A stretch of 4,838 nucleotides of DNA, taken from IMG/VR virus record IMGVR_UViG_2695420804_000009, positions 1 through 4,838 of that record; one strand, written 5' to 3'. Source of the DNA: a virus. Lineage: Duplodnaviria > Heunggongvirae > Uroviricota > Caudoviricetes. This document shows, in pieces, positions 1-4,838 of the stretch. How positions within the stretch are numbered: position 1 is the stretch's first letter; every line of letters begins with the position of its first letter. The position numbers and the translations under genes were made by a program. The notes beneath the pieces were generated by a model. That model saw nothing but the letters and a program-made list of their open reading frames with translations, did no database searches and had not been told where the DNA came from.

Positions 1-34
1 CACGCTGAAAATGCCGGCCTTTGAATGGGTTCAT
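1..34 (-). CDS. tnpA: IS26 transposase (Tnp26), 5' end only; first 11 codons MNPFKGRHFQR, remainder outside window
   Basis: Minus-strand ATG at 34..32, translating leftward as M-N-P-F-K-G-R-H-F-Q-R, the N-terminus I recall for the IS26/IS6 transposase. Absent from the ORF track because it is truncated by the window edge. Confidence 0.8.
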   Translation of the reverse strand, partial: MNPFKGRHFQR

Positions 35-97
35 GTGCAGCTCCATCAGCAAAAGGGGATGATAAGTTTATCACCACCGACTATTTGCAACAGTGCC
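1..97 (-). mobile_element. IS26: IS26 (IS6 family) partial copy: terminal ~97 bp including the 14-bp terminal inverted repeat; element continues beyond the window start
   Basis: The reverse complement of 1..97 reads GGCACTGTTGCAAATAGTCGGTGGTGATAAACTTATCATCCCCTTTTGCTGATGGAGCTGCAC-ATG-AACCCATTCAAAGGCCGGCATTTTCAGCGTG, which matches my recollection of the IS26 left end (IR GGCACTGTTGCAAA followed by the tnp start). The terminal IR occupies + strand 84..97 as tttgcaacagtgcc. Recalled, not searched. Confidence 0.85.
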
Positions 98-153
98 TCC
101 CCCTGAATCAGCATTATGTTGATTATCCCTGCAAGCAGACAAATACCGTTATT

Positions 154-225
154 TTGTGTGAATAACGACACAACTGCGCTTAGCTGTTTGTCAGGCACAA
201 TCACTTCAACATAGGGCGAAGCCTA
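154..225 (+). promoter_or_regulatory. Putative P2-type late promoter (P_F-like) with TGT-N12-ACA activator dyad
   Basis: TGT(155-157)-N12-ACA(170-172) lies within the imperfect palindrome TTGTGTG-N6-GACACAA (154..173). The dyad centre is ~85 bp upstream of the FI start codon, consistent with the roughly -55 placement of the Ogr/Delta site in P2/P4 late promoters. No strong -35 is present, as expected for activator-dependent promoters. The -10 is not confidently assigned (weak candidates around 197..214). Confidence 0.5.
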
Positions 226-248: not shown

Positions 249-1421
249 ATGGCTCAGGATTACCACCACGGGGTGCGCGTTGTTGAAGTCAACGAAGGCA
301 CCCGATCTATTACCACGGTGAGCACCGCCATCGTGGGTATGGTCTGCACGGGCGATGATGCCGATGCAAAAATGTTTCCTCTTAATAAACCCGTGCTGAT
401 CACTGATGTGCTGACTGCCAGCGGTAAAGCGGGTGAGTCAGGTACTCTGGCCCGTTCGCTGGATGCCATCGCTGACCAGGCAAAACCCGTGACCATTGTT
501 GTGCGTGTGCCGCAGGGTGAAACGGAAGACGAAACCACGACCAATATCATCGGCGCAGTGACTGCTGAAGGTAAAAAAACAGGTATGAAAGCCCTGTTAT
601 CTGCCCAGTCACAGCTCGGCGTTAAACCGCGCATTCTCGGCGTGCCAGGCCACGACACCAAGGCGGTAGCTACTGAGTTGCTGAGCGTGGCGCAACGCCT
701 GCGTGGATTTGCTTACCTGTCAGCGTATGGCTGCAAGACAGTGCAGGAGGCGATCACTTACCGCGAAAACTTCAGCCAGCGCGAAGGGATGCTGATCTGG
801 CCTGACTTTACTGGTTGGGACACGGTGCTGAATGCCGAAGCAACGGCATATGCCACCGCCCGTGCGCTTGGTCTGCGCGCCAAAATTGACGAGCAGACCG
901 GATGGCACAAAAGCCTGTCCAACGTGGGCGTGAACGGTGTCACCGGAATTTCTGCAGATGTGTTCTGGGATCTGCAGGACCCGGCAACCGATGCAGGTCT
1001 GCTGAACCAGAACGACGTCACCACGCTTGTGCGTAAAGACGGTTTCCGCTTCTGGGGTTCCCGCTGCCTGAGTGATGACCCGCTCTTTGCCTTCGAAAAC
1101 TACACCCGCACGGCGCAGGTGCTGATGGACACGATGGCAGAAGCACACATGTGGGCGGTGGATAAACCGCTTAACCCGTCGCTGGCCCGCGACATTATCG
1201 AAGGTATCCGCGCCAAAATGCGCAGCCTGGTCAGTCAGGGCTATCTCATTGGTGGTGATTGCTGGCTGGATGAGTCGGTGAACGACAAAGACACGCTGAA
1301 AGCCGGAAAACTCACCATCGACTACGACTACACGCCAGTGCCGCCACTTGAAAACCTGATGCTGCGTCAGCGCATCACCGATCAGTACCTGGTGAATTTC
1401 GCCAGCCAGGTCAGCGCGTAA
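249..1421 (+). CDS. FI: P2-like phage tail sheath protein (gpFI family)
   Basis: 390-aa ORF preceded by a strong SD (AGGAGG at 234..239, 9 nt spacer). The translation is closely similar along its length to P2 gpFI as I recall it (e.g. [107 protein letters not shown]). Confidence 0.93.
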
Positions 1422-1430
1422 GGGGACAAC

Positions 1431-1946
1431 ATGGCATTACCACGCAAATTAAAACACCTGAACCTGTTTAACGACGGGAACAACTGGCAGGGGATCGTTG
1501 AGTCGCTGACGCTGCCGAAATTTACCCGCAAATATGAGAAGTATCGCGGCGGCGGAATGCCGGGTGCGGTGGATGTGGATCTGGGGCTTGATGACAGTGC
1601 GCTGGACACAGAATTTTCCATTGGTGGTACTGAATTGCTGCTGTTTAAACAGATGGGTAAAGCCACGGTGGATGGCATCCAGCTGCGCTTTACCGGCTCT
1701 ATTCAGCGTGACGATACCGGGGAAGTGCAGGCCGTGGAGCTTGTCGTGCGTGGACGTCACAAAGAAGTGGATTCCGGCGAGTGGAAGACGGGCGAAAGCA
1801 ACACCACCAAAGTGACCAGTACCAACAGCTACGCGAAGCTGACCATCAATGGTGAGGTGCTCTATGAAGTGGACCTTATCAACATGGTGGAAATTGTGGA
1901 CGGTGTGGACCTGATGGAAGCGCACCGCAACGCCCTCGGCCTCTGA
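1431..1946 (+). CDS. FII: P2-like phage tail tube protein (gpFII family)
   Basis: 171-aa ORF starting 10 nt after the FI stop, with SD AGGGGA at 1421..1426. The translation resembles P2 gpFII (M..PRKLK, TLPK.TRK.E.YRG.GM.G, VDLGLDD.AL, RDDTGE..AVE.V.RGR.KE, IN.VE, HR...GL). Confidence 0.93.
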   Translation: MALPRKLKHLNLFNDGNNWQGIVESLTLPKFTRKYEKYRGGGMPGAVDVDLGLDDSALDTEFSIGGTELLLFKQMGKATVDGIQLRFTGSIQRDDTGEVQAVELVVRGRHKEVDSGEWKTGESNTTKVTSTNSYAKLTINGEVLYEVDLINMVEIVDGVDLMEAHRNALGL

Positions 1947-2000: not shown

Positions 2001-2285
2001 ATGAGCGATAAGCAGACTGAAAAGACCATTCAACTGGATACCCCCATCAAGCGCGGTAAAACAGAAATCACCGAAATTGTGCTGCGTAAACCGCAGTCCG
2101 GTGCGCTGCGCGGTACACGCCTGCAGGCCATTATGGATATGGATGTAAACGCGATGATGACCGTGATCCCCCGCATCTCCAGTCCGGCACTGACTGCACA
2201 GGAAATTGCAGAGATGGACCCGGCAGATCTCACTGCCATGTCGGTTGAGGTTGTCACTTTTTTGTTGAAGAAGTCGGTGCTTGCC
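2001..2285 (+). pseudogene. E: P2-like gene E (tail assembly chaperone), 3'-truncated; the E' extension is lost
   Basis: The gpE-like N-terminus plus the conserved slippery heptamer are retained, and phage-like sequence ends within ~2265..2295. After a -1 shift the reading frame runs only 26 codons ([13 protein letters not shown]...) before a stop at 2342..2344, far short of the ~55-codon E' extension expected from P2. Confidence 0.7.
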
Positions 2286-2516
2286 GGTTTACCGTATCAG
2301 GCAGAGTTACAGGTTCCGCAGGATATCGCGGTGATTGGCTATGACGATATCGAACTGGCAAGCTTTATGACGCCACCATTAACCACTATCCACCAACCGA
2401 AAGATGAACTGGGGGAGCTGGCGATTGATGTACTCATCCATCGGATAACCCAGCCGACCCTTCAGCAACAACGATTACAACTTACTCCGATTCTGATGGA
2501 ACGCGGTTCGGCTTAG
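2001..2516 (+). CDS. Chimeric 171-aa ORF: N-terminal ~90 aa of a phage tail assembly chaperone (gpE-like) fused in frame to the C-terminal ~75 aa of the ribose operon repressor RbsR (LacI family); probably a non-functional fusion
   Basis: SD AGGA at 1990..1993. The N-terminal part (..[43 protein letters not shown]..) has the gpE / Phage_E character. The C-terminal part ([73 protein letters not shown]) is a LacI-family effector-domain C-terminus consistent with RbsR. No LacI-type N-terminal HTH is present. Confidence 0.6.
2258..2264 (+). other. Programmed -1 ribosomal frameshift slippery site T_TTT_TTG (E/E' recoding signal)
   Basis: TTTTTTG lies in the X_XXY_YYZ register relative to the E frame (codons ACT TTT TTG), at codons 86-88 of E. 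That is the position and sequence type described for the P2 E/E' frameshift. Confidence 0.6.
2286..2516 (+). pseudogene. rbsR: rbsR 3' remnant (ribose operon repressor, LacI family), missing the DNA-binding domain and most of the effector domain
   Basis: The C-terminal LacI-family sequence ends ...LMERGSA* at 2516. Its 35-bp convergent overlap with the hsrA 3' end (2482..2516) matches the rbsR/hsrA arrangement as I recall it in E. coli K-12. The 5' boundary is approximate (junction somewhere in 2265..2295). Confidence 0.8.
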
Positions 2517-3909
2517 ATTTACGCTGTCTTTTGATCAAATTATTACCATCGGTTGTTTTCAGAAGCATGAACATTGCTGCTGAAGCAACAGTAATAATGC
2601 CCATCGTGATAAACGTATAGTGGAATTGTTCGACAGTCGTTGTGCCTTCCATCCCTTCATAAACGCGAAGGACGGCCGCACTTACAGCAACGCCTAAACT
2701 AATCGACAGTTGCTGCGTGACCGCCAGAACACTGTTACCGCTGCTGGCGTTGTCATCGGTCAGATCGGCAAGTGTGATGGTATTCATCGCGGTAAATTGC
2801 GTCGACATAGCCATCCCTAATATAAACAACGGCAAGATCAGCATCCATATCGCCATTGCCGGTGATTGCAAAGAGAACTGAGCGATCATTAGCCCAATAA
2901 TCACCGTGATCCCCACTAACGTATGGCGATAGCCCAGACGACGTAAGACTTGGGTAACCATCGATTTTGCAATAATGGAACCTAACGCTGTCGGTGCCAT
3001 CATACAGCCGGCAATAAACGCCTGATAACCAAATCCTACCTGTAACATCAATGGCATAAGGAACGGTACACAACCGGTCCCCAGACGGGTTGCAATATTG
3101 CCTACGATACCGATCGAGAAAGTGCGGGTTTTAAATAAATCTAATGAAATTAATGGGTTTGGCGTGTGTCGCGCATGGAGAATATAGAGAAGCAGTAACC
3201 CGATGCTGGTGACAATTACCGTCAAGGCAATCCAGCTGGCGACAATCTTTTCCCCGAATAGCTCTATTCCGCTTGAGAAGAGAACAAGGCTGAGGCCAAA
3301 CAGCAAAAAGCCAGTGATATCGAATCTGCGTCGTGCGGTGGTGAAATTGGGCATATGTTTGCGCGCGTAAAGAAGGCCCGCAATACCTATGGGGATATTG
3401 ATTAAAAATATCCAGTGCCAGGTTGCCCAGGTGACCAGCACGCCGCCAAGAACGGGGCCTAAAATTGGCCCCACCAGACCCGGCATGGCGACAAAATTCA
3501 ATACTGGAAGAAGTTCATTACGAGGATAAGCGCGCAGTAAGGCCAGCCGAGCAACAGGCATCATCATTGCGCCGCCTATCCCCTGAATAACCCGGAAGAC
3601 AACCAGCTGTGGTAGCGAATTAGAAAGTGCGCAGGCCAGAGAACCCAATGTGAACAGACTCACGGCAAGGGTAAAAATGCGACGCGTACCGAAGCGATCG
3701 GCTAGCCATCCGCTTACCGGAATAAGCATCGCCACCGTCAGCGTATAACTGATGATGGCTGATTGCATCGCGAGAGGAGAACGATTAAGGCTATGAGCGA
3801 TTGCGGGTAAGGCGGTATTCAGAATAGTGGCATCAAGTGCCTGCATGAAGAAGGCCATCGCCGCGATCCACGGCAAACCCGCCATACTGCGATTCTTTTT
3901 ATCGCTCAT
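2482..3909 (-). CDS. hsrA: MFS (DHA2-type) efflux transporter HsrA/YieO
   Basis: 475-aa ORF, highly hydrophobic with many predicted TM segments. The N-terminus [35 protein letters not shown]... and the overall sequence match my recollection of E. coli HsrA (YieO). SD AGGA ~6 nt upstream of the start on the minus strand. Synteny with yieP and rbsR supports the call. Confidence 0.93.
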
Positions 3910-3931
3910 TCAATGTCCTGTTATCGGGTTG

Positions 3932-4624
3932 TCACTTATCAGGTGAGCGTAGCAGCGCCTGACAAGCTTTAAATGCCGCGTCGCCATCGCTTTGGACAAT
4001 CGCATCGACAATCGCCTGGTGCAGATCCAGCTTTATCACTGTGTCGCTGGTAATTGACGTGAAGTAAGTGTGATAAACCGAATGGAATAGCGAGGCGAAT
4101 GAGGTCAAAAACGGATTGGCGCTCATTTCATAGATATGCTCATGCCAGGCCATATCGACTTCGATCCAGCGTTCACGGCGAAAGTTCTCTTTTAATGCCG
4201 CCATTTCGGCCATTAACGTATTGAGATGCGCCTTCTGTTCCGCGGTGCCAACCGTTGCAGCCAGTAGGCAAGCTTGCGGCTCCAGACAGATACGCATAAC
4301 CAGAAAGTGATCGATGACCTGATGAAAGTTCTCTTCTGTCATCCACCAGGTAAGCAATTCCTGATCAAGAAAATTCCAGTTTGATTGTGGCATGACCCGG
4401 GTACCAATTCGCGGTCGCGGTAAAACCATCCCTTTTGCCGTTAACGTTTTGACCGCTTCGCGTACCGCTGTACGACTCACTCCAAATTGCTCGCCCAGCT
4501 CAATCTCACCAGGCAAAATGGTGCCGGGTTCATATTCACCTTTTAAGATGCGTTGCGCCAGCTTCTCAGCCAGAACATACGAAAGGTTTTTCTGTGCAGC
4601 TAACTGTTGTGCGCTTAAAGGCAT
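3932..4624 (-). CDS. yieP: GntR/FadR-family transcriptional regulator YieP
   Basis: 230-aa ORF with an N-terminal GntR-type winged HTH (..GEYEPGTILPGEIELGEQFGVSRTAVREAVKTL...) and a FadR-like C-terminal domain. SD AGGAAG 8 nt upstream of the ATG on the minus strand. Ends 22 bp upstream of the hsrA start, suggesting a yieP-hsrA operon. Confidence 0.9.
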   Translation of the reverse strand: MPLSAQQLAAQKNLSYVLAEKLAQRILKGEYEPGTILPGEIELGEQFGVSRTAVREAVKTLTAKGMVLPRPRIGTRVMPQSNWNFLDQELLTWWMTEENFHQVIDHFLVMRICLEPQACLLAATVGTAEQKAHLNTLMAEMAALKENFRRERWIEVDMAWHEHIYEMSANPFLTSFASLFHSVYHTYFTSITSDTVIKLDLHQAIVDAIVQSDGDAAFKACQALLRSPDK

Positions 4625-4734
4625 TACTAATCTTCCTTTTTCTTTTTATTCCTCCTTAGTATGCCACCAGGAAGTGTGATTACGGTTGCAAAAACGGCAA
4701 ATTGCTTGTTTTATGGCACATTAACGGGGGTTTT

Positions 4735-4749
4735 GCTGAAAAAATGCGC
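4735..4749 (+). promoter_or_regulatory. Putative Fis binding site I of the rrn P1 promoter (centre about -71)
   Basis: gctgaaaaaatgcgc is a 15-mer with G at position 1, C at position 15 and an A-rich centre. Its centre at 4742 is 71 bp upstream of the inferred P1 start at 4813, matching the known Fis site I position of rrn P1 promoters. Confidence 0.45.
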
Positions 4750-4754
4750 GGTCA

Positions 4755-4813
4755 GAAAATTATTTTAAATTTCCTCTTGTCAGGCCGGAATAACTCCCTA
4801 TAATGCGCCACCA
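4755..4813 (+). promoter_or_regulatory. rrnC P1: Ribosomal RNA operon P1 promoter (rrnC P1 by synteny): UP element, -35, -10, GC-rich discriminator and +1
   Basis: AGAAAATTATTTTAAATTTCCT (UP element, 4755..4776), -35 TTGTCA (4777..4782), 16-bp spacer, -10 TATAAT (4799..4804), discriminator GCGCCACC, +1 A at 4813. This is essentially identical to the classic rrnB P1 core sequence. The transcript leader runs to the window end. Confidence 0.9.
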
Positions 4814-4838
4814 CTGACACGGAACAACGGCAAACACG

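Follow-up and report, generated by a model that had tools for sequence, protein, structure and literature searches.

An open reading frame that begins as the tail assembly chaperone of a P2-like phage and ends as the C-terminus of the Escherichia coli repressor RbsR raises the question of how two such unrelated genes came to be joined, whether the join is real, and whether its product could have any role. The ORF lies in a 4,838-bp stretch of DNA (the window) that is identical to the whole of contig CXZN01000059.1 from the draft E. coli assembly GCA_001284765.1. Three blocks make up this contig: the end of an IS26 element (1-97), a 2.2-kb prophage piece of the Peduoviridae type carrying a late promoter region, sheath, tube and gene E (98-2294), and E. 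coli chromosome (2295-4838), the last being 100 % identical to its chromosomal counterparts. We consider it likely that the junction between the second and third blocks is a strain-specific rearrangement scar, left by illegitimate end joining of a P2-like prophage to rbsR.

The chimeric ORF (2001..2516, + strand) encodes 171 aa from an ATG start, and has been deposited as CTT12394.1 under the label 'tail E family protein'. Up to residue 98 it is identical to the gpE homologue that intact prophages encode as a 100-aa protein, and the corresponding codons 1-98 of gene E (tail assembly chaperone; 2001..2294, + strand) are 100 % identical to these prophages up to 2294. Residues 99-171 match RbsR residues 258-330 at 73 of 73 positions, and derive from codons 258-330 and the stop of rbsR (2295..2516, + strand; 100 % identity to E. 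coli chromosomes). A native Shine–Dalgarno sequence, AGGA at 1990-1993, is positioned 7 nt upstream of the ATG, bearing out an earlier note on this DNA, in which the E frame was said to run open from the phage chaperone into the RbsR C-terminus as a 171-aa ORF with its own ribosome-binding site. The same note described the product as a chaperone fragment attached to a partial sugar-binding domain, of which the second half stands and the first does not. The phage portion comprises 98 of the 100 E codons, with the cut falling two codons ahead of E's own stop, and contains the complete Phage_TAC_7 domain (gpE; PF10109; residues 9-88, profile positions 1-78 of 79, E = 2.9e-18). The RbsR portion is incomplete, covering only positions 96-166 of the 167 in the Peripla_BP_3 profile, i.e. 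the C-terminal 43 % of the effector-domain profile, and a Pfam search detected no LacI-type HTH in the chimeric ORF. Because the chain crosses between the two subdomains in LacI/PurR-type folds, the RbsR fragment would not be expected to fold as an autonomous domain.

The point at which phage gives way to chromosome can be placed exactly. Searches of PLSDB plasmids, GenBank phages and 5,426 complete E. coli genomes gave phage matches that all end at 2294 and chromosomal matches that begin at 2295, save for two rbsR alleles in which the match is one base longer and starts at 2294; identity is 100 % on both sides. The breakpoint is 2294/2295, inside the interval (2258-2300) in which gene E had been proposed to be cut shortly past its slip site and joined to rbsR. 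The phage parent reads ...GGTTTACCG/ACAGCCTGA and the rbsR parent ...GGCGTTA/TATCAGG; in a longer view, the phage reads ...GCCGGTTTACCG/ACAGCCTGA, rbsR ...GGCGTTTACCAGGCGTTA/TATCAGGCAG and the window ...GCCGGTTTACCG/TATCAGGCAG. Gene E of intact relatives ends in ...GLP-TA-stop, such that E here loses just Thr-Ala-stop, and on the rbsR side the break falls at the first base of codon 258 (position 3001 of the related locus L002). As both breaks lie on codon boundaries, in the same phase, the E frame continues without a shift into the rbsR tail and terminates at the stop of that gene. The prior for an in-frame join is 1/3, and that for a join on codon boundaries on both sides is 1/9, so the open frame is statistically unremarkable and needs no special explanation. 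Continuous homology over the interval, of either RbsR or phage E, would have meant that there is no junction at all; this reading was rejected, as no record amongst the complete E. coli genomes, plasmids and phages spans both sides, from which it follows that we are dealing neither with a natural phage harbouring an rbsR piece nor with an rbsR allele containing phage-like sequence.

The joint is also unique in the collections searched. It is absent from the 5,426 complete E. coli genomes, the PLSDB plasmids and the GenBank phages, and the exact 37-mer over 2294/2295 has no match in the GTDB species representatives or the JGI metagenomes. In an exact look-up against about 15 billion proteins, the fusion protein stands alone in its cluster and is recorded from one contig. 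A database value of 'samples_with_this_contig = 3' was considered as a sign of independent isolates and set aside, since unrelated NCBI contigs also carry values of 1-3, probably reflecting duplicate records. A literature search on the accession returned nothing relevant, its single hit being a chance substring of an unrelated accession. As deposited, the joint is found in one draft assembly only.

A singleton of this kind, on one contig in one draft assembly and absent from every other collection searched, suits the rival explanation that the joint is a sequencing or assembly artefact (a chimeric fragment in the library, an incorrectly closed gap or a join made in scaffolding), and that the real genome carries an intact rbsR and an ordinary prophage. 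The properties of the contig argue otherwise. Graph assemblers mis-join at common k-mers and the two parents have none at the joint, so that a de Bruijn-graph mis-join would not be a natural explanation. A chimeric fragment would exist at single-read depth, in competition with the full-depth true continuations, yet the contig is unbroken for 2.2 kb on one side and 2.5 kb on the other; the absence of branching over more than 2 kb in each direction suggests that wild-type E-E'/T and rbsR 257-258 continuations were not present at comparable depth. Furthermore, the contig ends exactly where repeats start, as expected of a correct contig.

The left end lies in IS26, the terminal 97 bp of which are present (1..97, - strand), with the transposase start reading leftwards and the contig beginning inside the element. 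The 14-bp terminal inverted repeat GGCACTGTTGCAAA is found at 84-97 on the minus strand as an exact match (0 expected by chance) and adjoins the transposase start, as is characteristic of an IS26 (IS6 family) end; an IS26 family transposase is annotated beneath the matching stretch in H61 (locus L006), and plasmids match the stretch by the thousand (18,866 places for query 1-2294 and 18,842 for query 40-160). Phage homology starts at window position 98 (position 20001 of the intact locus L004) with the last 9 nt (Ser-Pro-stop; 98..106, + strand) of a serine invertase ('recombinase family') gene that has been cut by IS26; the recombinase CDS ends at position 20009 of that locus, and in related loci the gene gives Resolvase and HTH_7 Pfam matches. 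The same 97/98 joint was found in no other record searched, and the invertase gene has been hit by IS26 independently, at other positions, in other strains. That the IS26–phage joint is as unique as the one at 2294/2295 fits a rearranged locus better than two independent artefacts.

Between these two joints lie, besides gene E, an intact tail sheath gene homologous to P2 FI (249..1421, + strand; 390 aa; Pfam Phage_sheath_1, Phage_sheath_1C and Gp18_domIII_N), whose exact protein is frequent in E. coli prophages, and an intact tail tube gene homologous to P2 FII (1431..1946, + strand; 171 aa; Pfam Phage_tube, E = 8.8e-60). On the chromosomal side, the rbsR 3' end retains its native 35-bp convergent overlap with an intact MFS transporter gene (2482..3909, - strand; named mdtD by PGAP and hsrA/yieO in K-12 nomenclature). 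This is followed by intact yieP (3932..4624, - strand), a GntR/FadR family regulator gene that matches the E. coli chromosome, and by the yieP-rrsC intergenic region (4625..4838, + strand) upstream of rrnC, the 16S rRNA gene coming next in locus L002. Positions 4600-4838 occur at a median of 4 places per genome, being repeated upstream of several rrn operons. Both contig ends are thus in repeats (IS26 and the rrn upstream region), as is normal for short-read contigs.

With regard to how the two parents were joined, the in-register microhomology at the joint amounts to 0 bp for the common rbsR alleles and 1 bp for the two variant alleles; nucleotide comparison, which had been proposed for finding the break and any microhomology, places it at 2294/2295, where phage and common rbsR alleles agree at no base in register. 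Illegitimate recombination in E. coli proceeds mainly by a pathway that relies on microhomologies of about 9 bp (PMC11372144). None is present in register here, and such a blunt joint is atypical for this pathway, which counts against a scar; it resembles a ligation chimera instead, and in this respect favours an artefact. A 7-mer, GTTTACC, does occur in both parents, but offset by 8 nt, and its use for joining would need a second event.

The GTTTACC element also bears on the possibility that a dedicated recombinase made the joint, either the serine invertase of the prophage acting on quasi-crossover sites or IS26 through a deletion or inversion. The 7-mer, which we take to resemble part of a Gin/Hin-type half-site, is near the break in both parents, the invertase gene is directly upstream of the sheath gene in intact relatives, and IS26, with its record of insertion into this very gene, bounds the phage fragment on the left. 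However, a deletion or inversion mediated by IS26 leaves a copy of the element at the joint that it creates, and no IS26 sequence is present at 2294/2295. Serine invertases (Gin/Hin/Cin/Pin-type) exchange strands at a shared 2-bp core that is flanked by two half-sites; here, the GGTTTAC motif starts 9 nt to the left of the break, which does not coincide with a crossover core, the left half-site is unmatched, and the joint has no shared 2-bp core. Nor does any inverted or direct repeat relate the two breakpoints. An origin at an invertase quasi-site or through repeats was rejected on these grounds (misplaced GGTTTAC, no repeats, no shared core), and we regard the action of a dedicated recombinase, IS26 included, as very improbable.

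The likely source of the prophage piece adds a further complication. Prophages next to ybjL match the piece with 100 % identity, one of them in GCA_001285585.2, an assembly whose neighbouring accession leads us to guess that it stems from the same project, and a prophage at the ssrA site differs from the piece by 3 mismatches. The exact sheath allele was encountered in 637 blocks, with ten of the ten places among the matches listed being at ybjL, and the same sheath protein allele (WP_000046120.1) is also present at the ssrA site in strain A7. Nucleotide identity would therefore favour a ybjL-type prophage as the source. At ybjL, the phage is in direct orientation with rbsR and roughly 3 Mb from it on the K-12 map, so that a deletion would take out oriC and a tandem duplication should split the contig at the joint, leaving no simple one-step event. 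At ssrA the orientation is inverted, and a 1.2-Mb inversion containing oriC would be needed. Hence neither site permits a simple viable deletion, and the lack of any simple chromosomal event from the usual prophage sites lends weight to an artefact. So too does the failure to find a reciprocal product: the protein predicted for the other end of an inversion, RbsR 1-257 followed by Thr-Ala, was absent from the protein collection in all three start variants, and a homologue search with RbsR 1-257 retrieved only generic full-length and partial RbsR clusters, none tied to GCA_001284765.1. A multi-step history in an IS26-bearing strain would be plausible. Weighing these points against the unbranched contig, its repeat-bounded ends and the second unique joint, we hold an artefact to be unlikely, albeit an explanation to be taken seriously.

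Taking the junction as a rearrangement scar, the following history is proposed, the joining mechanism being what we infer from a blunt junction. In an ancestor of the isolate, homology-independent end joining would have linked a P2-like (Peduoviridae) prophage to chromosomal rbsR, the prophage having been broken two codons short of the E stop and rbsR at codon 258. The IS26 that borders the remaining 2.2 kb of phage DNA on the opposite side would represent a separate event. Intact relatives continue with E', T, U, D and ogr, and the event would have removed or displaced this part of the tail operon 3' of E, i.e. the E' extension, the tape measure gene T, U, D and ogr, together with the first 257 rbsR codons and the DNA-binding domain that they specify. 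With these losses, neither the tail operon on the contig nor rbsR would be able to function. The E-'RbsR ORF would then be an accidental by-product, which retains the ribosome-binding site and slippery heptamer of E, and whose transcription would require the late promoter to be switched on by an Ogr/Delta-type activator supplied by another element.

The heptamer itself, T_TTT_TTG (2258..2264, + strand), belongs to the programmed -1 frameshift that generates E and E+E', and has kept both its sequence and its correct phase. It is the sole TTTTTTG of the window and lies near the 3' end of E, where the E frame reads AC[T TTT TTG], conforming to X_XXY_YYZ; its P2 counterpart is the annotated frameshift site GG[T TTT TTG], with which it aligns in comparable protein contexts (VVGFL in P2 vs VVTFL here). 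In P2, a -1 shift at TTTTTTG yields E (91 aa) and E+E' (142 aa) (PMC3091744). The earlier note had reported the heptamer as intact, and its single occurrence, phase and homology to the P2 site agree with this; translation likewise confirmed that the -1 frame stops after 26 codons at 2342..2344. The further proposal, that the E' extension has been replaced by junk, holds as well. After slippage, the -1 frame (2264..2344, + strand) retains the first 10 codons of native E', from which it passes into 16 codons of rbsR read out of frame, ending in a TGA at 2342-2344. The extension of an intact relative runs to 57 codons and, after these first 10 residues, reads DSLTVDD..., with a 39-aa GpE-family ORF and T also present in intact relatives; the window has no E' extension (Phage_P2_GpE) leading into a tape-measure gene. 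The predicted frameshift product is accordingly 114 aa, against 145 in the native case, and would retain just 10 E' residues. By analogy with the T part of lambda gpGT, it would lack the E' portion expected to bind the tube protein. The RNA 3' of the slip site also differs, with an unusually stable fold in an intact relative (-29.7 kcal/mol, z = -3.1) and an unremarkable one in the window (z = -0.1); for P2, a stimulatory structure is reported to be lacking (PMC3091744).

Whether the ORF could be expressed depends upon the region ahead of the sheath gene. A TGT-N12-ACA dyad, TGTGTGAATAACGACACA (155..172, + strand), is a putative site for activation of the late F-operon promoter by Ogr/Delta, with spacing similar to that in P2: its centre is 85 bp upstream of the sheath ATG, compared with 83 bp between the centre of the annotated P2 activator site and the FI ATG. 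On its own, the motif carries no significance, as 3 were found where 1.4 were expected. A promoter scan revealed no sigma-70-like promoter on the + strand upstream of either the sheath gene or E, as expected for an activator-dependent late operon. A hybrid promoter at the IS26 end was considered and rejected, as the -35-like TTGCAA there has no suitably spaced -10, and the scan returned no + strand promoter. In intact relatives ogr comes after D, and it is absent from the contig, so transcription would depend on an Ogr/Delta protein encoded elsewhere. Expression of the chimeric ORF from the putative late promoter is possible.

Against this background it can be asked whether the chimera is expressed and kept for a function, for example as a decoy chaperone that poisons tail assembly in superinfecting P2-like phages. 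It has a complete chaperone domain, a native ribosome-binding site, a retained slip site and a late promoter region that appears intact, and the stoichiometry of chaperone and frameshift product is known to matter for lambda tail assembly (PMC5009743). Despite this, it is a singleton conserved in no other genome, and so gives no sign of selection; its RbsR part is a domain fragment, no constitutive promoter was found, and chance alone would give an in-frame phase in one case out of three. We thus view maintenance for a function as highly improbable. More remote still is a specific form of the idea, in which the chimera is made when a P2-like helper or superinfecting phage supplies Ogr, and acts as a dominant-negative tail assembly chaperone; we would give this next to no credence. 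Were it true, the protein would combine an intact tape-measure-binding E domain with a bulky C-terminal tail and no functional E' partner, and a prophage scar would behave as an accidental anti-phage decoy. That the chimera is most likely inert, as was first suggested, is the best-supported view, and we infer that it is neither expressed nor functional.

Seen as a scar, the locus offers a further example of how prophage decay and illegitimate recombination may give rise to chimeric host–phage ORFs, in this case with a host regulator (rbsR) knocked out. Automatic annotation named the chimera merely as a 'tail E family protein', which is a warning to pan-genome and annotation pipelines. A real joint would also mark a larger chromosomal rearrangement in the isolate. 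Its significance is otherwise small, unless the joint recurs in other lineages or the fusion protein interferes with P2-like phages.

Comparison with P2 reveals both how much of the chaperone gene has been kept and what has been lost around it. As in the FETUD operon, gene E follows the sheath and tube genes, its product shares 44 % identity with P2 E over 87 aa, including the Phage_TAC_7 domain, and the same heptamer is found in the same phase at homologous codons. The native homologue is somewhat longer than its P2 counterpart (100 aa for E and 145 aa for E+E', versus 91 and 142 aa). In the window, however, E' ends after its tenth codon, the tape-measure gene is missing and rbsR is downstream where T would be expected, whilst the zero-frame product gains 73 RbsR residues where P2 E stops. 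Judged by its sequence, the phage half is a bona fide P2 E homologue that lacks two defining features of the E/E+E' system, namely the E' extension and the adjacent tape-measure gene. A similar arrangement is that of lambda gpG/gpGT, again a chaperone with a low-frequency -1 frameshift product, although there is no detectable sequence relation. In that system, the G part interacts with the tape measure and the T part with the tube protein, to which each binds, and the ratio of the two products matters (PMC5009743). The T-equivalent part is destroyed here, so the chaperone pair could not work.

For the host half, the last 73 residues and the stop are identical to those of E. coli RbsR, the LacI/GalR-family repressor of rbsDACBK, but residues 1-257 are missing, and with them the HTH DNA-binding domain and most of the effector domain. 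It therefore has neither defining feature of a LacI-family repressor, i.e. the HTH and a complete effector domain. As a whole, the locus is of a known kind, a defective prophage remnant with an incidental chimeric ORF at a rearrangement joint. Partial tail operons left by deletion or rearrangement also occur in the ogrK/yegZ region of K-12, which we take to be a defective P2-like prophage remnant, and in GCA_001285585.2 (locus L009), where the left half of the remnant is replaced by chromosomal genes and the tape-measure gene is split; the present locus differs from these in that the break is inside E and creates an in-frame host–phage chimera. The rbs locus, too, has been disrupted elsewhere, the rbs operon having been lost by IS150-mediated deletions in experimental populations of E. 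coli B. Here it has again been hit by a disruptive rearrangement, but with no IS at the rbsR breakpoint, and with a prophage gene as the partner.

At its left extremity (window 1–106) the contig starts inside IS26, whose terminal repeat lies at 84–97; the prophage invertase gene, reduced to its final 9 nt, directly adjoins the element. The resulting IS26–phage joint is unique to the same degree as that between phage gene E and rbsR, and the 2.2-kb phage piece is therefore flanked by one-off junctions. With regard to the opposite end, the region upstream of rrnC (4600–4838) has a median of 4 matching places per E. coli genome, and it is because this sequence is a repeat that the contig stops at 4838.

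Near the E–rbsR break, a 7-mer, GTTTACC, occurs in both parental sequences (window 2282–2293; 2985–2991 in L002, the chromosome with intact rbsR), with the two copies lying 8 nt out of register. We put at about 5% (our own estimate) the probability that such a match would turn up by chance no more than ~30 nt from each of the two breaks. Downstream of the junction, the convergent 3′ ends of rbsR and mdtD (hsrA) still overlap by their native 35 bp within the chimeric ORF (window 2482–2516), and thus late-operon transcription, if any, would enter mdtD antisense.

A sheath–tube–E segment 100% identical to that of the window is found at the ybjL site in GCA_001285585.2 (CYDX01000001.1), an assembly that, going by its neighbouring accession number, may come from the same sequencing project. 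Therein (regions 1–9300 and 12182–15259), the left half of the prophage is swapped for the yeh/mlrA/btsSR region in inverted orientation, whilst the tape-measure gene is split into two parts; this locus is a further rearranged prophage remnant. Separately, P2-like gene E occurs at 100% identity in NZ_CP026085.1 (3111265–3111409), which is labelled E. coli DH5alpha and, at 4.83 Mb, exceeds the K-12 genome size; this record may be mislabelled as to strain or misassembled. The public genomes of Campylobacter phages A18a and A11a (GenBank MG065686, 171605–171910, and MG065691, 2213–2518) also carry E. coli rbsR–mdtD sequence at 100% identity, which looks like E. coli contamination or chimeric assembly.

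In the intact P2-like prophage L001, the 83 nt 3′ of the slip site (3109–3191) fold at −29.7 kcal/mol (z = −3.1), with 1 of 200 shuffles equally good. The counterpart in the window (2258–2340) yields z = −0.1, the fold having been lost through the junction. For the P2 frameshift, a stimulatory structure is reported to be absent (PMC3091744); this prophage lineage may thus be unlike P2 in having structure after the slip site.
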